This document shows positions 772 through 16,280 of a stretch of 20,000 nt of DNA, piece by piece. The DNA comes from an uncultured Methanosarcinales archaeon. Its GTDB lineage: Archaea; Nanobdellota; Nanobdellia; Woesearchaeales; CAYMBN01. The notes beneath the pieces were generated by a model. The model made no database searches, was not told the DNA's origin, and was given only the letters and a program-made list of their open reading frames with translations. The stretch is taken from assembly GCA_964388715.1 (NCBI GenBank), contig CAYMBN010000003.1, positions 106,322-126,321 on the forward strand. The letters run 5' to 3'. Each line of letters begins with the position of its first letter. Within the stretch, counting starts at the first letter, position 1. The position numbers and the translations under genes are program-made.

Positions 772-796
772 ATCTTATTCTAGAATTTGTTTTTTT

Positions 797-832
797 AAAA
801 AAATAAAAAAAAGAAAGGAAAAAAATTTCCTT
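797..832 (-). terminator. Putative terminator of S-layer gene copy 1
   Basis: AAGGAAA-AAAA-TTTCCTT hairpin (815-832) followed on the minus strand by long T tracts, just after the stop codon. Confidence 0.65.
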
Positions 833-836
833 AGTT

Positions 837-3332
837 TTATTCAGCAGCAGCTTCTTCAGCAGCTGGTGCACTAATAGCGATGTCTGCATCGCTTGTAGTA
901 ACAACTTCTAGTTCAGCGCCTTTGAAGTTATCTGTATGGCTGTCGTATTCAGCAACAACTTTGGAAGCTCTTTGTGTGTCTTTTGCACCGTAACCAGCAA
1001 CAAGTAAAGCTACTTTGCCGCTTGTTTCGTCTTCCATTAACTTAATCTTAGCTTTTCCTGCTTCAAATCCAGCAGCACAATCTTCAGGATTGCCTAGCCA
1101 AACTGCAGCAACTGGGTTAGCACATGGACCACCAACTAAGATAACGTTGCTTTCTTTTTCTTTGCCTTCTAAGTCACTAGCTAACTTTACAGCTCCAACA
1201 TTGATTTTTATTAGTTCTTCACTTGTAACTGCTCCTTCTCCAGCAGATTCAGTTTGTTCAAATGCAACTGCTGTGTCAGATATATAGAAGTTACCATAGA
1301 CTTCGTCACCAGCATAGTCAATTACCAAGGTGTCTTGGTCTGGATCTGTGTCGTAGTTGATCTTTGTTGCTAAATCGGATTTTACATAAGAAATATATTC
1401 TTTTGTTGTACCGATTTCGTAACTTGTTAAAGTTGCTGATGTTCCTGAGAACAAAGTTGCAAAGCTGTTAACTTGTACTTTGTTACTTGCGTGTCCAAGT
1501 GTTACATTAATCCACTGTCCACTTCCTAGGGAACCATCTTTGTTTTCTTCTGCCATATACAATACCCATGTAGCAGGGTCTGTACCTGTTGTGTTAATAT
1601 GGCTTCTGTTTGCTGTGCTTTGTGGCATTGTTGTGTTTTCTACAGGTAGATAAATCATCATACCTTCTTCTGTAATCACTCTATCAAAGTATGTGTTTGT
1701 TCCTGGTGTAATGTTCATTTCTGCTAGTGTTTCATTAAGGTTAGCTAATGTTAATGTTGCGCTTCCAATTGTAAATGATCCAGCTTTTTTGTTTTCCCAT
1801 TTGGTTCCTGTAACAAGGTCTTTGAATGTTGCACCATCTGTGTCATCTATTTTGGTTACTTCAACAAGATATGTTTCTCCTGTGTTTGAACCATCATAGT
1901 AGGTTACAGGTAATGCTTCATAACTTTCATTCCAAGTAACTCTTCCACCATCTAAACTTGTTAACAATCTTTCGTCGGTATGGTCATCTCCACCTAATGT
2001 GTCGAATCCGCTTGTACCGTTGCTACCAAGTAGCTTGATTGTTGCTTCACCAGATTTAATTGGAACTGTTAGTTGTAGTTCTTCGTTTCCACTGTTTTCA
2101 ACTGTTATTATTTCTGAACCTGGTCTTGTTAAACCTTCGTATGAAAGTTTAAATCCACCTAGTCCAGGGAATTCTGCACTGGACTCTTCTGTGATGAATA
2201 AATCTTCATCAGGTGTCCATGTTAGTCTTATGTATGCCATCTCTGTGTTAGATGATCCACTTACTGTTGCGTTAATGTCGCATGTAATTGAATCAACATC
2301 TTCTCCACCAAGTTCTATTTTATCTTTGTGTTCAATGGTAACTTTTTCAGCACCAATGTAGAACTCAACTTTGTCAACTTCTCCTGCTAAGTTTTGGATT
2401 AAGATTTCCTTAACACCAATTTCGGTTCCATCTGTTAATTTGTCAGTGTTACCTTCTGTAATAGCGTCGGTTACTTCGCCATCAACAATGAACTTAGCTT
2501 CTGGAGTTGTACCACCTAGATAGGATACTTTAACTTTGTATTCTTTTTCGTTTACTGTGAAGGTTTTTTCTTCTCCTTCTTCCATTATTGTGCTTAGTGC
2601 TCCACCCATTAATTGTAGTTTATCAACGTTTGCTTTACCATTACCGCTTGCGTCTGCGTCTACGATGTCATATGTTTTACCAAGCATTTCAATCTTGGTA
2701 TTTTTGAAATATGTTACATCTGTAGCACTTGCTGTTGCGTTTGCACTAATAGCACTTTTTGTAAAATCAAGTGTATAGTTTAGCAAAGCACTGTTTCTAG
2801 CTACTCTGAAACCCATTGTAGGTTCTTTATCGTCGTAGTCAGAATCAGCAAACATATCTAATGCTCTACCTGGGTAGAATACGATCTTTTGTTCGTATCC
2901 ATAGTCATTGCTTTGTGTGTTGGTGTATGTACCGTCTGCTAATGCAGTTGGTAAGTCATCACCATCAATTGCAACAACTGACACGTTTGTTATAGCATCT
3001 CCAACATTTAATTTGTTAGATGTTTGCTCTACTTTGTGTGATTCACCGCCACTTGCTACAACAGCAGAACTTGTTGTTCCTGTTGAGACAACTGTGGATT
3101 TTTTCATTGCATATTGCAGACTCATTGCAATGTCTGTAATACCAATTACATCTTCTGCAGCTGCTTTGTCGCCAACGACCATTAAAGCGTCAAACTTCAT
3201 GTCGTCTGTAATAAATGGCGCTGGATAGTTTGCTAGGTCTGCGGCAGCTAAAGCTCCCATCATTGTAGCACCTACCATAAAAGCTCCTGCACCCAGTGCA
3301 ACCACTTTTTTTATTGCTTTTTTTACATCCAT
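837..3332 (-). CDS. S-layer protein, copy 1 (Methanococcus/Thermococcus-type S-layer N/C domains)
   Basis: Signal peptide MDVKKAIKKVVALGAG...ALAA; motifs DLANYPAPF, VVGDKAAAEDVIG, NVILVGGPCANP, LLVAGY..KDT; acidic, Thr-rich, many N-x-S/T sequons; SD GGAGGTG at 3341-3347. Confidence 0.88.
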   Translation of the reverse strand: MDVKKAIKKVVALGAGAFMVGATMMGALAAADLANYPAPFITDDMKFDALMVVGDKAAAEDVIGITDIAMSLQYAMKKSTVVSTGTTSSAVVASGGESHKVEQTSNKLNVGDAITNVSVVAIDGDDLPTALADGTYTNTQSNDYGYEQKIVFYPGRALDMFADSDYDDKEPTMGFRVARNSALLNYTLDFTKSAISANATASATDVTYFKNTKIEMLGKTYDIVDADASGNGKANVDKLQLMGGALSTIMEEGEEKTFTVNEKEYKVKVSYLGGTTPEAKFIVDGEVTDAITEGNTDKLTDGTEIGVKEILIQNLAGEVDKVEFYIGAEKVTIEHKDKIELGGEDVDSITCDINATVSGSSNTEMAYIRLTWTPDEDLFITEESSAEFPGLGGFKLSYEGLTRPGSEIITVENSGNEELQLTVPIKSGEATIKLLGSNGTSGFDTLGGDDHTDERLLTSLDGGRVTWNESYEALPVTYYDGSNTGETYLVEVTKIDDTDGATFKDLVTGTKWENKKAGSFTIGSATLTLANLNETLAEMNITPGTNTYFDRVITEEGMMIYLPVENTTMPQSTANRSHINTTGTDPATWVLYMAEENKDGSLGSGQWINVTLGHASNKVQVNSFATLFSGTSATLTSYEIGTTKEYISYVKSDLATKINYDTDPDQDTLVIDYAGDEVYGNFYISDTAVAFEQTESAGEGAVTSEELIKINVGAVKLASDLEGKEKESNVILVGGPCANPVAAVWLGNPEDCAAGFEAGKAKIKLMEDETSGKVALLVAGYGAKDTQRASKVVAEYDSHTDNFKGAELEVVTTSDADIAISAPAAEEAAAE

Positions 3333-3506
3333 TATCTAAACACCTCCGTGTTTATGTTTTGTGTGGGCTTATCTTAATTTTTTATTGCAGTTATAACCGC
3401 AATAAGATTGACCTTGATTGTGAAGGCCTCATTTTTTTTGAGTATGTGTTTCCTCTATTTTTTAGACTTGTCACTCTAGTTACTTACATTAAAAAGAAGG
3501 AAATTG

Positions 3507-3520
3507 TTTTATAAAAGTTT
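3507..3520 (-). promoter_or_regulatory. Putative BRE/TATA promoter of S-layer copy 1 (copy 2 at 6445-6458)
   Basis: AAACTTTTATAAAA on the minus strand, ~175 bp upstream of the ATG; implies a ~150-nt 5' UTR. Confidence 0.5.
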
Positions 3521-3734
3521 AGTAAATTAGGGTGTTTTTATTGGTAAAATAATGCTGATTTTGGTTGTAGTGGGTGAATTTAATGGAATTAGGGCGTTAT
3601 CATTTTAGAGTAGAGAAGTGTGTTTTTTGGGTGTTTTTTGACCCCTGAAAAATGGTGGTAGAAGGGCTGTAGTGTCTGGATTTGATGGGTAGAAATCATA
3701 TTAGTGTGTGATATTATAAGATAATGTTTTTTTT

Positions 3735-3770
3735 AAAAAAATAAAAAAAAGAAAGGAAAAAAATTTCCTT
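3735..3770 (-). terminator. Putative terminator of S-layer gene copy 2
   Basis: Same hairpin plus T tract as 797-832. Confidence 0.65.
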
Positions 3771-3774
3771 AGTT

Positions 3775-6270
3775 TTATTCAGCAGCAGCTTCTTCAGCAG
3801 CTGGTGCACTAATAGCGATGTCTGCATCGCTTGTAGTAACAACTTCTAGTTCAGCGCCTTTGAAGTTATCTGTATGGCTGTCGTATTCAGCAACAACTTT
3901 GGAAGCTCTTTGTGTGTCTTTTGCACCGTAACCAGCAACAAGTAAAGCTACTTTGCCGCTTGTTTCGTCTTCCATTAACTTAATCTTAGCTTTTCCTGCT
4001 TCAAATCCAGCAGCACAATCTTCAGGATTGCCTAGCCAAACTGCAGCAACTGGGTTAGCACATGGACCACCAACTAAGATAACGTTGCTTTCTTTTTCTT
4101 TGCCTTCTAAGTCACTAGCTAACTTTACAGCTCCAACATTGATTTTTATTAGTTCTTCACTTGTAACTGCTCCTTCTCCAGCAGATTCAGTTTGTTCAAA
4201 TGCAACTGCTGTGTCAGATATATAGAAGTTACCATAGACTTCGTCACCAGCATAGTCAATTACCAAGGTGTCTTGGTCTGGATCTGTGTCGTAGTTGATC
4301 TTTGTTGCTAAATCGGATTTTACATAAGAAATATATTCTTTTGTTGTACCGATTTCGTAACTTGTTAAAGTTGCTGATGTTCCTGAGAACAAAGTTGCAA
4401 AGCTGTTAACTTGTACTTTGTTACTTGCGTGTCCAAGTGTTACATTAATCCACTGTCCACTTCCTAGGGAACCATCTTTGTTTTCTTCTGCCATATACAA
4501 TACCCATGTAGCAGGGTCTGTACCTGTTGTGTTAATATGGCTTCTGTTTGCTGTGCTTTGTGGCATTGTTGTGTTTTCTACAGGTAGATAAATCATCATA
4601 CCTTCTTCTGTAATCACTCTATCAAAGTATGTGTTTGTTCCTGGTGTAATGTTCATTTCTGCTAGTGTTTCATTAAGGTTAGCTAATGTTAATGTTGCGC
4701 TTCCAATTGTAAATGATCCAGCTTTTTTGTTTTCCCATTTGGTTCCTGTAACAAGGTCTTTGAATGTTGCACCATCTGTGTCATCTATTTTGGTTACTTC
4801 AACAAGATATGTTTCTCCTGTGTTTGAACCATCATAGTAGGTTACAGGTAATGCTTCATAACTTTCATTCCAAGTAACTCTTCCACCATCTAAACTTGTT
4901 AACAATCTTTCGTCGGTATGGTCATCTCCACCTAATGTGTCGAATCCGCTTGTACCGTTGCTACCAAGTAGCTTGATTGTTGCTTCACCAGATTTAATTG
5001 GAACTGTTAGTTGTAGTTCTTCGTTTCCACTGTTTTCAACTGTTATTATTTCTGAACCTGGTCTTGTTAAACCTTCGTATGAAAGTTTAAATCCACCTAG
5101 TCCAGGGAATTCTGCACTGGACTCTTCTGTGATGAATAAATCTTCATCAGGTGTCCATGTTAGTCTTATGTATGCCATCTCTGTGTTAGATGATCCACTT
5201 ACTGTTGCGTTAATGTCGCATGTAATTGAATCAACATCTTCTCCACCAAGTTCTATTTTATCTTTGTGTTCAATGGTAACTTTTTCAGCACCAATGTAGA
5301 ACTCAACTTTGTCAACTTCTCCTGCTAAGTTTTGGATTAAGATTTCCTTAACACCAATTTCGGTTCCATCTGTTAATTTGTCAGTGTTACCTTCTGTAAT
5401 AGCGTCGGTTACTTCGCCATCAACAATGAACTTAGCTTCTGGAGTTGTACCACCTAGATAGGATACTTTAACTTTGTATTCTTTTTCGTTTACTGTGAAG
5501 GTTTTTTCTTCTCCTTCTTCCATTATTGTGCTTAGTGCTCCACCCATTAATTGTAGTTTATCAACGTTTGCTTTACCATTACCGCTTGCGTCTGCGTCTA
5601 CGATGTCATATGTTTTACCAAGCATTTCAATCTTGGTATTTTTGAAATATGTTACATCTGTAGCACTTGCTGTTGCGTTTGCACTAATAGCACTTTTTGT
5701 AAAATCAAGTGTATAGTTTAGCAAAGCACTGTTTCTAGCTACTCTGAAACCCATTGTAGGTTCTTTATCGTCGTAGTCAGAATCAGCAAACATATCTAAT
5801 GCTCTACCTGGGTAGAATACGATCTTTTGTTCGTATCCATAGTCATTGCTTTGTGTGTTGGTGTATGTACCGTCTGCTAATGCAGTTGGTAAGTCATCAC
5901 CATCAATTGCAACAACTGACACGTTTGTTATAGCATCTCCAACATTTAATTTGTTAGATGTTTGCTCTACTTTGTGTGATTCACCGCCACTTGCTACAAC
6001 AGCAGAACTTGTTGTTCCTGTTGAGACAACTGTGGATTTTTTCATTGCATATTGCAGACTCATTGCAATGTCTGTAATACCAATTACATCTTCTGCAGCT
6101 GCTTTGTCGCCAACGACCATTAAAGCGTCAAACTTCATGTCGTCTGTAATAAATGGCGCTGGATAGTTTGCTAGGTCTGCGGCAGCTAAAGCTCCCATCA
6201 TTGTAGCACCTACCATAAAAGCTCCTGCACCCAGTGCAACCACTTTTTTTATTGCTTTTTTTACATCCAT
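3775..6270 (-). CDS. S-layer protein, copy 2 (protein identical to copy 1)
   Basis: Same 831-aa translation as 837-3332. Confidence 0.88.
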   Translation of the reverse strand: MDVKKAIKKVVALGAGAFMVGATMMGALAAADLANYPAPFITDDMKFDALMVVGDKAAAEDVIGITDIAMSLQYAMKKSTVVSTGTTSSAVVASGGESHKVEQTSNKLNVGDAITNVSVVAIDGDDLPTALADGTYTNTQSNDYGYEQKIVFYPGRALDMFADSDYDDKEPTMGFRVARNSALLNYTLDFTKSAISANATASATDVTYFKNTKIEMLGKTYDIVDADASGNGKANVDKLQLMGGALSTIMEEGEEKTFTVNEKEYKVKVSYLGGTTPEAKFIVDGEVTDAITEGNTDKLTDGTEIGVKEILIQNLAGEVDKVEFYIGAEKVTIEHKDKIELGGEDVDSITCDINATVSGSSNTEMAYIRLTWTPDEDLFITEESSAEFPGLGGFKLSYEGLTRPGSEIITVENSGNEELQLTVPIKSGEATIKLLGSNGTSGFDTLGGDDHTDERLLTSLDGGRVTWNESYEALPVTYYDGSNTGETYLVEVTKIDDTDGATFKDLVTGTKWENKKAGSFTIGSATLTLANLNETLAEMNITPGTNTYFDRVITEEGMMIYLPVENTTMPQSTANRSHINTTGTDPATWVLYMAEENKDGSLGSGQWINVTLGHASNKVQVNSFATLFSGTSATLTSYEIGTTKEYISYVKSDLATKINYDTDPDQDTLVIDYAGDEVYGNFYISDTAVAFEQTESAGEGAVTSEELIKINVGAVKLASDLEGKEKESNVILVGGPCANPVAAVWLGNPEDCAAGFEAGKAKIKLMEDETSGKVALLVAGYGAKDTQRASKVVAEYDSHTDNFKGAELEVVTTSDADIAISAPAAEEAAAE

Positions 6271-6712
6271 TATCTAAACACCTCCGTGTTTATGTTTTGT
6301 GTGGGCTTATCTTAATTTTTTATTGCAGTTATAACCGCAATAAGATTGACCTTGATTGTGAAGGCCTCATTTTTTTTGAGTATGTGTTTCCTCTATTTTT
6401 TAGACTTGTCACTCTAGTTACTTACATTAAAAAGAAGGAAATTGTTTTATAAAAGTTTAGTAAATTAGGGTGTTTTTATTGGTAAAATAATGCTGATTTT
6501 GGTTGTAGTGGGTGAATTTAATGGAATTAGGGCGTTATCATTTTAGAGTAGAGAAGTGTGTTTTTTGGGTGTATTTTGACCCCTGAAAAATGATGGTAGA
6601 AGGGCTGTAGTGTCTGGATTTGATGGGTAGAGTGATAGGCAGGATATGATAAAGTAATATGTTAATTTTTAGTAAAAATAGTGTTTGAAATGCTCACGGA
6701 ACGATAATTGAG

Positions 6713-6738
6713 AAGAATATGATGCGGAATGCAGGGTT
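6713..6738 (-). repeat. 26-bp direct repeat of the tRNA-Leu 3' end and trailer (att-like)
   Basis: AAGAATATGATGCGGAATGCAGGGTT at 6713-6738 and 6848-6873. Confidence 0.9.
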
Positions 6739-6857
6739 ATGAAGCTACGCAAACCTTTTTGTTGCCTCGCTCTACTCGGCAAAAAAATGTTTGATCGAAA
6801 TGCATTTAAGTTGGACATTTTGCTACGCAAAAGTCCAACGAACTACTAAGAATATGA

Positions 6858-6979
6858 TGCGGAATGCAGGGTTCGAACCTGCGTAGGCACTAAGCCAATA
6901 GGTGTCTTCAAATCTTGTGATAATGCTTTGCACATGAGATGCCTAAGCCTATCCCGTTTGACCACTCCGGCAACTCCGC
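6858..6979 (-). tRNA. tRNA-Leu(TAG) with a 38-nt intron at 37/38 (6904-6941)
   Basis: Minus strand: acceptor GCGGAGT/ATTCCGC+A, D-arm CCG..GAGTGGTCAAA..CGG, anticodon stem ATAGG/CCTAT, loop CT-TAG-G|A, long variable arm GGC-TTAGT-GCC, T-arm GCAGG-TTCGAAC-CCTGC; 84 nt mature, CCA not encoded. Confidence 0.93.
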
Positions 6980-7029
6980 ATAATAGGTATTAAAGAAAGA
7001 GATTATTTAAAAAATTATCTATTTGGTAA

Positions 7030-7197
7030 TTATTTTTTAGTCTGCCACTTGTATGTTCTTACTTTAGAAGTTTTACCATAACCACAACTTGCACATTTCT
7101 TTTTTCTTTTGTGGTATGTGTGTCGACCACAACGTCTACAAATTATATGGGTTTTTTTACCAGATTTTTTACCCATAGATGCTGTTCCTTTTGCCAT
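7030..7197 (-). CDS. rpl37e: 50S ribosomal protein L37e (55 aa, absent from the ORF track)
   Basis: Manual translation [55 protein letters not shown]; follows Sm as in the conserved archaeal Sm-L37e pair. Confidence 0.96.
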
Positions 7198-7208
7198 TTT
7201 GGTTCACT

Positions 7209-7433
7209 TTATGCTGGAGAAATTAGGATTATTGTGTCTCCTCTGATAAATACTGTGCCTAATTTTCTTTTTGTTTCACCGTCAACTTTTTCTTCTGCAT
7301 CATCGAGAACAACATTGATATGTATATCAAATGCTTTTAAGTTTCCAATGAATTGTTTGTGGTTCTTAAGTTCTACAATAACTCTCTTATTTCTTGCATT
7401 GTTTAATGCGTCTAATGGTCTTGATGTTTCCAT
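7209..7433 (-). CDS. Sm-like archaeal protein (SmAP1/Lsm)
   Basis: RPLDALN..., GNLKAFDIHINVVLDDAEE, LGTVFIRGDTIILISP; start moved to METSRP (7433), which follows SD GAGGGGT. Confidence 0.95.
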   Translation of the reverse strand: METSRPLDALNNARNKRVIVELKNHKQFIGNLKAFDIHINVVLDDAEEKVDGETKRKLGTVFIRGDTIILISPA

Positions 7434-7540
7434 TTTGTAAACCCCTCGTATAATATCTTTGAAAAGTCTGAGGATATATTTAAATGTTACTATATAAAAA
7501 CAAAACATATTTAAATAACTGATTATCTTTAGAGGATAAA

Positions 7541-7918: not shown

Positions 7919-7987
7919 TTCTTAGTTACTTGTTAGTGGTTAAATAATAGAAAGATTTATAAATGGGTGATTTGTTTTGTAATTTGT

Positions 7988-8452
7988 ATGATACGTAAGA
8001 ATCCGCTTCCAAGACATATGAAGAAAATACCTGGTGGGATTATAGTTCCTTTAACAGGACCACCTGGAGAAAGAACACCAGATCGTGCTGTTGTGGTTAT
8101 TGTTTCTAAATTAAATGAGTATTATAGTGTAAATACAAATACTCTTGGAGAATTAGTGAGATTTGAAAGAGGAGAAAGAATTACCCATGGATCTAGGAAA
8201 AAAAAAGAAACATGGAAAAATTATGTTAAATATGTGGAAGATAATACTTTATATGCAAGAGTGAATATTCAACATCTTGAAAGTGAAGATGATTTTTCTT
8301 ACAATATGAGTGGAACTCAACATGAATTTGCAGTATATTTTAATGTTTGTGGAAGAAATAAATCTGAAAAAGATAGGTTAAGTTGGCAAGAAGCAGAGGA
8401 TTATCTTTTATATCTTGAAGCAAAAACTGCTCAACGTTTAGGTCTTTATTAA
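7988..8452 (+). CDS. Hypothetical protein, apparently co-transcribed with the PolB-like gene
   Basis: Open frame; TATA-like AAAGATTTATAAAT at 7951-7964 favours a leaderless ATG at 7988 (track start 7967 GTG); stop is 1 bp before the next ATG. Confidence 0.65.
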   Translation: MIRKNPLPRHMKKIPGGIIVPLTGPPGERTPDRAVVVIVSKLNEYYSVNTNTLGELVRFERGERITHGSRKKKETWKNYVKYVEDNTLYARVNIQHLESEDDFSYNMSGTQHEFAVYFNVCGRNKSEKDRLSWQEAEDYLLYLEAKTAQRLGLY

Positions 8453-8453
8453 A

Positions 8454-11400
8454 ATGAGTTTGATAATTAATGATGCAATTGAAGTAAGAACTAAAGATAA
8501 AAAAAGTAATTACTTTATTAGTTTTCGTTCTGATGATAAAACAGTTGGACATTTTTGTTCTCCTGTTCCTGAAGATATTGACACAAATAAAAGGAAATCT
8601 TTAATGTGGGATATTGGAATTTTACATAGAGGAGTGGAAATTGAACTTCCAAGTTTAAGACGAGTTTTTGAATTACAATCAAGTATTGAAGATCTTCTTC
8701 AATCAGACGAGGATGAGTCAATGATGATTAGTGAAGCAAAAGAACAATTAGATAATCTATTGAAAGAGAATGATTATGGGGTTTCTGAAATTGATGATGA
8801 TATTTTTATGTTGAAATTGCATCTAAATATTCTGAGACAAGATGATAAAGGAGATTTTTACATTTATGGTGTTAGAAGGACAGAAGATTCTTGTCATGAA
8901 ATAATTGATTGGACAACACTTGTTGAAGATATTGAAACAAGATATTTTACTCCTTCTCAAGATAAAGAATGGGGGATTCCTGATCGTCATATTGCTAGGT
9001 TGTTAGACTTATCAGGAAAGTGGAGTTTTGAAAGTTGTAAAGGTTTTTTTGGTAAGTCATACAACGAGTTAAAAGATATAATGAAAAAAGCTTTCAAGCA
9101 GAGGAAAGAATGTATAACTCATGATGGGATGTTGTGGTTTAAGGATGGAAAGTATTCAGGGCAAGTACATACTGTATATGGTACTACTTTGAATAATGAA
9201 GAAATTAGAAATATAAAAGCAACAATGAGATACTTAAATGGTGAAGAAGTAGTAGTTGACTTTGATATTATATCTCATGAGTTAAGTAGTGCTAAAGTAG
9301 ATGAAAAATATGAAGAGTTTTTAGGAAAACTTTACAGATACAAAGATAGAAGGTCTGTTTTTAAGGAATTCAGAGTTGATAGTGTTGATTATTCTAAGTT
9401 TGAGGAATCTTGTGTGTTAAAGGATAATCAAATTAATAATTTATACAGAAATTGTGTTGAAAAATTGAAGAATGGTATTAATCGTTTGAAAATTAAAGGA
9501 GTTGATCCTTATGCTATAACACCAAAAGAAGAAGAAAGGATTAAGGAAAAAGTAAGAATTTCTGTTGAAACAGTAAAAATAAATAATTTTTTTAGAAATA
9601 TGGATGTTGATCAAAGATGGCAAATAGGACATGATATTAAAACACATTTTGAGCAAGTTAGGATGGGTGAAGCAACAACTGCAGAAGAAATAAGACGTAA
9701 TTCTTTTAATCATTGTTATCATAATGCTTCTTTTGATGTTCCAAAAAAGAAAGAACAAGATACTGAAAGAATTAGTGATACTGGATGGCAAATTGGTAAA
9801 CATGGGGAAGCACCTAGAACATATGGCAAGAGTGAATTTAATAGAAGAGTACATCTTGCTGGAAGAATTTATTTAGATACCTTGGATATAATGAAAAATA
9901 TCTTTCCTGAACTAGGGAAGTATAAACTAGAACACTCATTAAAATATCTTGCTAACTATTTAGGATTACAACTACCTGATATTGAGATTGAAGTTAATGG
10001 AAAAAAGATAAATATTACTCGAAAAGGTGTTAAAGCAATTAGTCATGAAGATATTAGTCCATTAAATTACTTAGCAGAACTTGGTGATCATAAATCAAGA
10101 AGAGAATTATTATATTATCAGATTGCTGATGTTATGAATACAACTTGGTTTGAAAGGAATCTTTCAAGTTTTCTTATACCAATAATAAATATACATGAAG
10201 TGACTAGTTACAGTTTGAGTGATATTATACACTCTGTTAGATCAATGAAAGAAACATGGGATAGGATTTATTTCCTTGGTGGAAAAAAGCATAAAGAATC
10301 ATATGTAACTAGAAGAAAACAAATTTATATGAAGAGAATGGATAGTGGTTTTAAATCATATTTGGGAAGTTGGTTAGGATTTCAAAAACATTTGTGGTGT
10401 GAGATTGAAGAAGATAAAGGTAAAAATAAAAAAGTAAAGAGGAAAAAAACTTTGGAAAGAGTATCTGCTCCTGAGAATACTATTGCTGTTTATATTCCAA
10501 TTGTTGACTGTTTTAGAGGTCTTATTTTAAATAAATTTCCTGAATATAAAAAAATACTTGAAGATCACAGTGTCAGAAGGAATCTTATTATTGAAGATGA
10601 AGATGGTTTTTATGATATAGATGAAACTTCTCCAGAGTATTATAAAGAAAAAGCTCTTTTTAATGTGGAAAATGATCCTGGTGTAGCTGTTCATCAAAGA
10701 AATCAATTAGTTTATACAAGATACTTAGAAAATATTCTAAAGGATGTATTCTTTGATAGGTATAATATTGAATTTTTTGAAGGAATATATAACAAAAGTT
10801 TAGGGTTATGTGAAGTGCAAGAAAGTGATTTTGATTCTCTTGTTGAAAAAATAATTGAGGATAAAGAAAAAGAAGTAAGAACAAGACGTCTCCATTGGAG
10901 AATGAAGAGAGTTATTAATAGTGCAAATAAATTTTTTGAAAAACTTGATCGTATGAAGGAAAAATTTGGTACTGGGTTAAAACAAAAAGAATATGCAAGT
11001 ATTTTAAGGAGTAGTGTTGGTATTAAAAGAAGAACTGCAACTAGAAGAAAAAATGAATTATTTAATGGTGGATATAATGATAATCCTGATGATTTTAAAT
11101 GTTTAAATCTGTGTGAATTGGTTAATCCTGAAATTGAAATTTTAAGAGAATTTAGAGAGCAAGGGTATATTAGGGCCAGAGTAGATAAAAGAGAGAAATC
11201 TCTTTCGTTGGAAGAACTTCAACAAAAGGATTCTGATCTTTATGAACTTTATGAGAAATTTAGTTCTGCATTTGAAGATTATGAACATTATTTTTCTAAT
11301 CCCAATTTTAGTGGAGTAATTTCTGATGTGTATAAGGGGGTAACTGATAGATTAAATTTGGAAAATGCAGTTTATCTTGATCTGATTAGAAAGGAAATGA

Positions 11401-11669
11401 AACACGCACGATGGAAGTTTCAAAGAAGATACAAATTAGAACCTGAAAAGTTTGATGAGATGAAAGATGAGTATTTTAAGAGAATATCAGAGTTCTTAGA
11501 AATGAATAATTTGGTAGCACATAAACAAAGTGGGTTTACTTTATATCTTATTGCAAATGGTGATCAAGAACATGCTATTCAAGCTATAAAAGATTCAAAT
11601 TGTTTAATTTATGCATGTAATTTGAGTTGGGAGCAGTTTAATCTTAGAAAAAGGGGAAAACCTAAATAA
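8454..11669 (+). CDS. Highly diverged, probably inactivated family-B DNA polymerase derivative
   Basis: ExoI-like RKSLMWDIG, ExoII YHNASFDVP, beta-hairpin and GRIYLD, KYKLE...LANYLG, ExoIII LLYYQIADV; no DFxSLYPS or YGDTDS motif. Confidence 0.72.
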   Translation: MSLIINDAIEVRTKDKKSNYFISFRSDDKTVGHFCSPVPEDIDTNKRKSLMWDIGILHRGVEIELPSLRRVFELQSSIEDLLQSDEDESMMISEAKEQLDNLLKENDYGVSEIDDDIFMLKLHLNILRQDDKGDFYIYGVRRTEDSCHEIIDWTTLVEDIETRYFTPSQDKEWGIPDRHIARLLDLSGKWSFESCKGFFGKSYNELKDIMKKAFKQRKECITHDGMLWFKDGKYSGQVHTVYGTTLNNEEIRNIKATMRYLNGEEVVVDFDIISHELSSAKVDEKYEEFLGKLYRYKDRRSVFKEFRVDSVDYSKFEESCVLKDNQINNLYRNCVEKLKNGINRLKIKGVDPYAITPKEEERIKEKVRISVETVKINNFFRNMDVDQRWQIGHDIKTHFEQVRMGEATTAEEIRRNSFNHCYHNASFDVPKKKEQDTERISDTGWQIGKHGEAPRTYGKSEFNRRVHLAGRIYLDTLDIMKNIFPELGKYKLEHSLKYLANYLGLQLPDIEIEVNGKKINITRKGVKAISHEDISPLNYLAELGDHKSRRELLYYQIADVMNTTWFERNLSSFLIPIINIHEVTSYSLSDIIHSVRSMKETWDRIYFLGGKKHKESYVTRRKQIYMKRMDSGFKSYLGSWLGFQKHLWCEIEEDKGKNKKVKRKKTLERVSAPENTIAVYIPIVDCFRGLILNKFPEYKKILEDHSVRRNLIIEDEDGFYDIDETSPEYYKEKALFNVENDPGVAVHQRNQLVYTRYLENILKDVFFDRYNIEFFEGIYNKSLGLCEVQESDFDSLVEKIIEDKEKEVRTRRLHWRMKRVINSANKFFEKLDRMKEKFGTGLKQKEYASILRSSVGIKRRTATRRKNELFNGGYNDNPDDFKCLNLCELVNPEIEILREFREQGYIRARVDKREKSLSLEELQQKDSDLYELYEKFSSAFEDYEHYFSNPNFSGVISDVYKGVTDRLNLENAVYLDLIRKEMKHARWKFQRRYKLEPEKFDEMKDEYFKRISEFLEMNNLVAHKQSGFTLYLIANGDQEHAIQAIKDSNCLIYACNLSWEQFNLRKRGKPK

Positions 11670-16167: not shown

Positions 16168-16173
16168 AAATAC

Positions 16174-16280
16174 GCCCCGTTGGTGTAGCCCGGCCAATCA
16201 TTTTGCCCTTTCGAGGCAAAGACTCGAGTTCAAATTCCAACAAGGTTCAATCCTACGGATTGAAAGTCTCGGACGGGGCA
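16174..16280 (+). tRNA. tRNA-Glu(TTC) with a 32-nt non-canonical T-loop intron (16235-16266, position 59/60)
   Basis: Acceptor GCCCCGT/ACGGGGC+A; anticodon stem TTGCC/GGCAA with loop CT-TTC-GA; T-arm TCGAG-TTCAAA|T-CTCGG is restored by removing the insert; 75 nt mature. Confidence 0.9.

Follow-up and report, generated by a model that had tools for sequence, protein, structure and literature searches.

The evolution of the replication machinery counts among its landmarks the family-B DNA polymerases (PolB) that were inactivated or repurposed, such as the C-terminal half of Pol epsilon, PolB2 and poxvirus F12. In the described cases of repurposed PolB that were found, the exonuclease site was, to our knowledge, lost either earlier than the polymerase site or along with it. 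Archaeal PolB2 was first described as a group of 'inactivated' family-B polymerases (PMC2527604) and is now regarded as a translesion polymerase (PMC12926913); according to PMC7544198 its ExoI is not conserved and its ExoIII is missing, and one motif C Asp is retained together with recognisable PolB motifs. Inactivated PolBs have been exapted as the C-terminal half of Pol epsilon, as the chordopoxvirus F12 protein and as the helicase-fused pPolB of polinton-like viruses (PMC2669801, PMC4304020, PMC5499653). The bacterial Pol II and G3 PolBs are reported to have a beta-clamp-binding motif (PMC12926913), and a Pol II-like DPANN group, 'B7', which is nested in the Pol II group, occurs in Woese- and Pacearchaeota (PMC7544198). 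In prokaryotic PolX the polymerase site is inactive and the PHP 3'-5' exonuclease is active (PMC12926913). The locus described here lies in a 20,000-nt stretch of archaeal DNA (contig CAYMBN010000003.1, GTDB order Woesearchaeales; the whole stretch is called the window below) and consists of two adjacent genes, a short open reading frame (ORF), ORF154, and a long one encoding a protein of 1071 aa, P0001.

P0001 is read here, tentatively, as a diverged PolB descendant which is polymerase-dead, has kept a DEDDy exonuclease and is coupled with ORF154. In short, the likeliest reading of the sequence comparisons is a derivative of PolB that is polymerase-dead and probably exonuclease-competent. The frame of 3.2 kb, which an earlier note on this DNA had called intact, was confirmed at its full 1071 aa, and the probability of such an open frame arising by chance in this composition is about 1e-38. 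A HMMER search covering all 1.84 billion representatives of about 15 billion proteins, a homologue search of the kind proposed in that note, found three relatives of P0001 besides itself, which makes a family of four clusters, and no curated family could be assigned. Since one of the relatives, P0004 (931 aa, 32% identity to P0001), was found at E = 1.5e-80, P0001 is a real protein. The other two are P0005 (1047 aa, E = 5.9e-5) and P0006 (553 aa, E = 6.6e-4); P0006, the sequence of which starts within ExoII, is likely to be a fragment. Pairwise identity across the family is just 22-33%.

Searches in other collections confirmed the rarity of the family. The word-index homologue searches with the whole P0001, with the family profile and with residues 420-720 of P0005 returned the query alone, and two scans of 185,579 species genomes, one using the profile and one the single protein, found no encoding locus. 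When 50,697 phage records were searched with P0001 by tblastn, the only matches were two at E = 8 to a tetratricopeptide repeat (TPR) protein. The four members gave nothing convincing against Pfam (best E 0.02, unrelated families), the family had no match in NCBIfam and PHROGs, P0001 had none among the PDB sequences by phmmer, and the PADLOC-DB 2.0 defence models yielded no families for P0001 and ORF154. P0004, alone in the family, showed a weak PADLOC match to Cas10d (16.7 bits, E = 8e-4) at residues 291-388, which are helical and charged and precede ExoII. No account of such a family was found in the literature, where an unnamed family could escape word searches.

The likeness to PolB was statistically seen only at residues ~414-607 of P0001, a part which holds an ExoII-like motif, a GRxxxD block and ExoIII. 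In the ExoII-like motif Y422 and D428 do not vary across the four proteins and the [FY]-D pair is present in each; the pattern N-x(2-3)-[FY]-D can be recognised here, with the Asn in two of the four and a Tyr at its place in the other two. D475 of the GRIYLD block is likewise invariant (4/4), the aligned G271 and D276 in E. coli Pol II do not vary among the 11 PolBs that make up profile A4 (see below), and this block was the top-scoring one in several hhalign comparisons with PolB. In ExoIII both Y555 and D559 are invariant (4/4), and Y-x(3)-D stands collinear after GRxxxD with a modest significance (P 2.5e-4 to 2e-3).

Two PolB profiles were used for these alignments. A2 (n=6) contained two Pol II, three haloarchaeal plasmid PolBs and one Deinococcus protein; A4 (n=11) contained in addition four phage PolBs and a second Deinococcus protein. 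Two entries were left out of both, L006 with no annotated gene coordinates and L013, a 601-aa polymerase-domain protein. With A2, hhalign placed residues 414-568 on residues 214-344 of E. coli Pol II (P = 9.6e-4, 122 columns), and the exo-only family alignment (A3) gave a score of 39.4 against PolB (P = 2.5e-4, probability 43%). With A4 the score was lower (P = 2.1e-3, 128 columns) and the span longer, residues 444-607 on Pol II 243-378, which takes in the hairpin region, GRxxxD, the S-L-E helix, ExoIII and the post-ExoIII segment. None of 60 column-shuffled A2 profiles reached the observed 39.4 (maximum 23.5) and the reversed A2 gave 26.2; in case of A4 one shuffled profile of 60, an unexplained outlier of 134, reached the observed 32.7, and the reversed profile gave 15.3. 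The spacing from ExoII to ExoIII is 131 aa, compared with ~106 aa in Pol II. All ten best named Atlas clusters, obtained from language-model features, carry DNA_pol_B_exo1 (score 0.80-0.81), which is taken as a lead only. The landmarks listed in the earlier note (HNASFD, the hairpin, GRIYLD, YKLE, YQIADV) are therefore above chance by hhalign and shuffling, and its proposal of a PolB-type exonuclease core with large insertions is supported from ExoII to ExoIII. The peptides themselves were all where it had put them (WDIGIL at residue 52, HNASFD at 423, GRIYLD at 470, YKLEH at 490, YYQIADV at 554, AVYIP at 678, QLVYTRYLEN at 751 and FTLYL at 1028).

ExoI had been placed at WDIGIL (52-57), with a Glu to Gly erosion. 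This site is not conserved: W52 is invariant in the three sequences concerned, D53 is Leu and Asn in the relatives, and G55 is Gly and Ala. It was never aligned on the ExoI of PolB, and comparison of the N-terminal 60 residues with PolB N-termini by hhalign gave nothing (P 0.18-0.79). WDIGIL is probably not a remnant of an active site and the earlier ExoI was probably misplaced. D159, E161 and F165, on the other hand, are invariant in all three sequences having the region, and D159-x-E161 is the sole invariant D-x-E in the N-terminal half. D159/E161 is preferred as ExoI, and we consider this assignment reasonably likely, because the strict invariance of D428, Y555 and D559 would otherwise be unexplained. 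With it the DEDDy set would be complete, and the insertion between ExoI and ExoII would come to ~270 aa rather than 370. D428, Y555 and D559 were placed by alignment, D159 and E161 by their invariance; together these invariant residues suggest an intact DEDDy site. The insertion contains two stretches specific to P0001; in E. coli Pol II the distance from ExoI to ExoII runs from D156 to ~229. Within it, at residues ~171-232 (window ~8964-9150), the family profile weakly matched the C-terminal part of uS13/S18e (E = 0.045); a single sequence failed to recover this likeness, which was treated as chance.

The specificity of the match was examined by comparing A3 with 16 single proteins, namely 12 of the PolB family and DnaQ, Pol I, RNase D and RNase H. 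Two Deinococcus PolBs were at the top (P = 6.8e-4 and 1.6e-3), the only ones of the 12 below 0.01, and the GRxxxD...L..LA block has 27% identity over 48 columns with the Deinococcus proteins. P0006 has the C-terminal sequence QLGLF, with which E. coli Pol II also ends, and which we take to be the beta-clamp-binding motif of the latter. A post-hoc estimate puts the chance that one of the four proteins would end in exactly QLGLF at ~4e-6. P0005 has EGLFD near its C-terminus, like the two Deinococcus PolBs (PGLFD, AGLFD). PolB descent is thus favoured by the profile scores, by the GRxxxD...L..LA block, by the collinearity past ExoIII and by the detail of the C-terminal tail. The best single-sequence score belonged to the D. 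grandis protein (L012) and the second-best to the PolB of D. aetherius plasmid pDAETH-2 (L005, 115-4065). The latter is annotated just as '3'-5' exonuclease' and is flanked by genes for a NucS-domain endonuclease and a UvrD-helicase, a neighbourhood that suggests a repair cluster.

In the C-terminal half no likeness to PolB could be detected. Residues 600-1071 compared with PolB polymerase domains gave P values of 0.63 (A4), 0.71 (A2) and 0.93 (the Deinococcus pair), and this half had no match among the PDB sequences. The motif A, B and C positions which had been proposed earlier are not distinguishable from chance in these comparisons; the best path with A2, insignificant as it is (P = 0.71), laid FLEMNNLVAHKQSGFTLYL onto the motif C helix and hairpin, in the way the earlier note had suggested. 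Motif A (DxxSLYPS) was not found, the column five before the conserved Y/F of xVYIP being N/D/D/N. The K...N-S...Y-G of motif B (KxxxNSxYG) is not conserved, QLVYTRYL did not align to PolB, and the best path to motif B ran through the non-conserved RMKRVINSA (P = 0.63). In place of motif C (Y-x-D-T-D-S) the hairpin turn reads KQSG/EQSG/DIRG/EQRG with no conserved Asp. The loss of the catalytic Asp residues was correctly noticed before, as none is conserved at the motif A and C positions. Since there is no conserved Asp at motif A or at the hairpin turn, classical polymerase chemistry by this family appears very unlikely. Two residues of this half, E888 and E941, are invariant. In the reading favoured here this half would derive from the palm and fingers of a PolB.

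The large gene is preceded by ORF154, of which ATG 7988 is most likely the start. Its stop codon is followed by a single base and then by the ATG of the large gene at 8454. A TATA-like box with a spacing similar to that of three other genes in the window (S8e -31, Vut_1 -29, Dph2 -30) lies upstream of ORF154; no TATA-like box of its own was found at a comparable distance from the ATG of the large gene. Because of the 1-nt gap and the lack of a separate box, the pair looks like a single transcript with translational coupling. The next gene downstream is convergent, which is in line with an operon of these two genes. Judged by archaeal promoter architecture, the box TTTATAAA probably drives a two-gene transcript that is leaderless or nearly so, and the gene layout leads to the reading that the two genes are co-transcribed and translationally coupled. 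Both the TATA-like site and the ~154-aa ORF one base before the large gene had been pointed out in the earlier note, and their coordinates hold. ORF154 had no matches in Pfam, Atlas, NCBIfam and PADLOC, its best hit among the PDB sequences was a designed NTF2 protein (E = 0.41), and against PHROGs there was none at E<=0.01 and a single weak one at E = 0.081. It is not a detached piece of the large family, as phmmer gave just 1.3 bits and no likeness to any part of it. The predicted complex of ORF154 with residues 226-1071 of P0001 had a score of 0.00, the fold of the partner was uncertain, and the result has no weight either way. ORF154 may be an accessory subunit or partner of the large protein.

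On this basis the following mechanism can be proposed. The polymerase catalytic site would have been lost from a family-B DNA polymerase ancestor, and D159, E161, D428, Y555 and D559 would form a DEDDy 3'-5' exonuclease centre. P0001 is predicted to be a metal-dependent 3'-5' exonuclease acting at nucleic-acid 3' ends, in which the enlarged insertions and the helical C-terminal half could be substrate- or partner-binding modules, and ORF154, presumably co-transcribed and translationally coupled, could be the accessory subunit. That the pair is a two-subunit archaeal nuclease not previously described, a trans proofreader or 3'-end processor of a small, AT-rich archaeal genome, with a greatly elaborated PolB exonuclease as the large subunit and an orphan protein as the small one, and tethered to the sliding clamp in some relatives by a Pol II-type tail, is a more doubtful proposal. 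The features of the locus are collected in Table 1.

Table 1. Features of the two-gene locus. Positions refer to the 20,000-nt window, residues to P0001.
Feature	Residues	Position	Strand	Remarks
TATA-like box TTTATAAA		7956..7963	+	32 nt 5' of the ORF154 ATG
ORF154, 154 aa		7988..8452	+	family not recognised; ATG 7988, stop TAA 8450-8452
Large gene, protein P0001, 1071 aa		8454..11669	+	ATG start; stop codon included
'ExoI' of the earlier note, RKSLMWDIGILHRG	47-60	8592..8633	+	W52 kept, no conserved acid
Rival ExoI candidate LKLHLNIL...FYIYGV	120-140	8811..8873	+	hairpin-like, degenerate
ExoI candidate WTTLVEDIETRYF	153-165	8910..8948	+	D159, E161 invariant; preferred
Insertion, candidate ExoI to ExoII	166-413	8949..9692	+	exceeds that of E. 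coli Pol II by ~180 aa
PolB-like 3'-5' exonuclease core and post-exo segment	414-607	9693..10274	+	hhalign, shuffle controls
ExoII-like YHNASFD	422-428	9717..9737	+	aligns with E. coli WNvVQFD
GRIYLD block	470-475	9861..9878	+	on Pol II G271-R272...D276
ExoIII YQIAD	555-559	10116..10130	+	aligns with Pol II YNLKD
C-terminal half	608-1071	10275..11666	+	mostly helical; ends beta-hairpin/helix/strand

Several results weigh against the reading of P0001 as an exonuclease-competent PolB derivative, and some of them favour an alternative. The hhalign probabilities were no higher than 13-43%, and the PolB models of Pfam, PF03104 (DNA_pol_B_exo1) and PF00136 (DNA_pol_B), matched none of the four members at E<=10. 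In the single-sequence test E. coli Pol II had P = 0.037 and the nine other PolB-family proteins 0.07-0.83. The clamp-like tail is missing in P0001, which has a basic tail (RKRGKPK), and in P0004, where the tail is basic as well. Structure prediction by AlphaFold 2 gave a predicted local distance difference test score (pLDDT) of 33.1 for the single sequence of P0001 and of 44.1 with the four-row family alignment, with 50-76 over residues ~670-1060. Foldseek of this low-confidence model against the PDB gave no match at E<=1e-3, and the best one (0.08, a coiled-coil) is meaningless. The C-terminal elements were predicted in the order strand 676-680, helices, long helices from 744, hairpin 1020-1034, helix and strand; such an order would fit a palm into which fingers and a large helical insertion are set, and is not diagnostic. 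Finally, ORF154 is tied to the large protein by adjacency alone, that is, by the 1-nt spacing and the one shared TATA box.

Of the same kind are the observations on ExoI. When the insertions were excised in three ways, hhalign never joined either ExoI candidate to the exo core, and the best partner of the DIET motif was PolB motif C, insignificantly (P = 0.12-0.64), and not ExoI. A degenerate rival ExoI, LHLNIL, exists as well, and if it is the correct one, the exonuclease site is dead. Residues 120-140 have the strand-loop-strand spacing of PolB, with N/D/N at the Asp position and L/L/M at the Glu position, and it was this LHL[N/D][I/F][L/M] stretch (122-127) that hhalign chose when residues 120-200 were compared with the PolB exo region, laying 120-140 onto Pol II VSIDIETT...YCIGL. 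Both sites would then be dead, and the protein would be a structural or nucleic-acid-binding PolB scaffold, like the C-terminal half of Pol epsilon or PolB2 as first described, with a role in the replisome or in defence. The lack of conserved polymerase aspartates and the large insertions would be in line with such a scaffold. However, the alignment of the rival ExoI is insignificant (score 9.4, P = 0.68), ExoIII is retained in the family, and a protein with no catalytic role would hardly be expected to keep D428, Y555, D559 and D159-x-E161 invariant at 22-33% identity. A scaffold working in defence is made less likely by the empty PADLOC result for P0001 and by the housekeeping neighbours. 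We consider a protein with both sites dead unlikely.

A DEDD exonuclease from a different lineage, akin to DnaQ, RNase D or the PolA exonuclease, which has been combined with unrelated helical domains and possibly acts on RNA, is somewhat less likely still. The non-PolB controls DnaQ (P = 0.013) and the Pol I exonuclease (P = 0.036) scored near Pol II in the single-sequence test. The family profile found no polymerase among the PDB sequences, all of its 21 matches at E<=10 being uS13, and the exo-only profile had one match there, to an unrelated protein. Since DnaQ and Pol I score like Pol II and no PDB polymerase was found, the family can be assigned to the DEDD exonuclease superfamily on firmer grounds than to the descendants of PolB. 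The absence of Pfam PolB matches points the same way, as does the weak match of P0005 residues 447-547 to a PADLOC model, which is a DEDDh one (E = 0.013), and as do the neighbouring translation genes (S8e, SerRS, aIF2-alpha) and the weak uS13-like stretch mentioned above (E = 0.045). On the other side, the top scores belong to the PolB profiles (39.4, P = 2.5e-4) and to the two Deinococcus PolBs, and the collinearity through GRxxxD and the post-ExoIII segment is beyond the reach of the E. coli controls, among which RNase D (score 16.3, P = 0.19) and RNase H (11.3, P = 0.54) did poorly. The ExoII-ExoIII distance resembles that of Pol II, one relative (P0006) ends in QLGLF, and the Atlas lead is to PolB exo1. 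A still-active, extremely divergent polymerase with non-canonical residues, or a variant of this in which the N-terminal Y/V-S/E-D-T/I-E-T/S serves as a motif-C-like site, is highly improbable, because even though DIET/DTES/DTET repeatedly found its best partner in PolB motif C (YGDTDS), E888 and E941 are invariant and primer-independent PolBs lacking one motif C Asp are yet active (PMC7544198), all the DIET-motif C alignments are insignificant, a second conserved carboxylate in a motif-A-like context is absent, the motif A column is N/D/D/N, and the C-terminal half is without detectable likeness to polymerase domains.

The surroundings of the pair are those of an AT-rich archaeal chromosome piece (window GC 0.33). 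The genes of the window include aIF2-alpha, two S-layer genes, S8e, seryl-tRNA synthetase (SerRS), a Vut_1 transporter, TFB, a tRNA-Glu call, NUDIX, the diphthamide-synthesis protein (Dph2) and a U32 peptidase. The pair is located between S8e and a convergent zinc-ribbon ORF, with SerRS next to it, and has the same GC (0.29-0.31) as its housekeeping neighbours. Nothing in these surroundings suggests an island or mobile element, and a defence or mobile-element reading of the pair was rejected, as it had no support in PADLOC or PHROGs and the GC does not differ from that of the neighbours. No RNA family reached the Rfam gathering score in the whole window, and a scan of it for bacterial-type promoters and terminators was uninformative (21 sites vs 25.3 expected).

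Some other features of the window were observed. An exact tandem duplication of 2845 bp (790-3634 and 3728-6572, period 2938) gives two identical S-layer genes of 831 aa on the minus strand (837-3332 and 3775-6270; Pfam S_layer_C, E = 2e-15), and it could be a very recent event or an assembly artefact. The ~1 kb between this duplication and S8e (6573-7540) contains solely a 109-aa ORF with a GTG start at 7111-7440 (+), which has no family match and is overlapped by a 99-aa ORF on the opposite strand; no Rfam RNA was found there. ARAGORN called a 91-nt tRNA-Glu(TTC) at 16173-16263 (+), with room for an intron, for which Rfam gives no confirmation.

Among the described systems, the Pol II-like and G3 PolBs (E. 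coli Pol II, the Deinococcus plasmid PolBs) are the ones with which the exo core of P0001 is collinear from ExoII to past ExoIII. The Asp of GRxxxD is invariant in both, and the tails of two relatives agree, QLGLF of P0006 with Pol II and EGLFD of P0005 with the Deinococcus proteins. In contrast to these polymerases, the P0001 family has no Pfam match and no conserved motif A, B or C, and P0001 has ~180 extra residues between the candidate ExoI and ExoII and ~270 residues between the earlier motif B and C positions, and is itself without a clamp-like tail. Given the B7 group in Woese- and Pacearchaeota and the way P0006 ends in QLGLF, a Pol II-like ancestor of the family is an attractive hypothesis.

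PolB2 is the opposite case: the P0001 family keeps an invariant ExoII and ExoIII and has no Asp where motif C is expected, so the earlier remark that the protein differs from the PolB2 group was right. The C-terminal half of Pol epsilon, F12 and pPolB have a PolB-derived scaffold without polymerase catalysis in common with P0001; those, as described, lost the exonuclease too and belong to eukaryotes or their viruses, and a Zn-finger C-terminal domain is not evident in P0001. PolX follows the same logic, nuclease kept and polymerase lost, with unrelated families (PolX/PHP vs PolB/DEDDy), and can be used as an analogy only. If the reading of P0001 as a nuclease derived from PolB is true, the family would be the reverse case for PolB, with the polymerase site gone and the DEDDy site invariant, in parallel to PolX/PHP, and it would point to a nuclease that proofreads or processes ends on its own in archaea of reduced genome size. 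It is rare (4 clusters among ~15 billion proteins) and diverged, so that standard annotation calls it hypothetical, and it would show how far PolB can drift past model-based detection. The known kind is thus the repurposed PolB, and what appears to be new, with the mechanism we infer for it, is this variant, in which the exonuclease would have outlived the polymerase.

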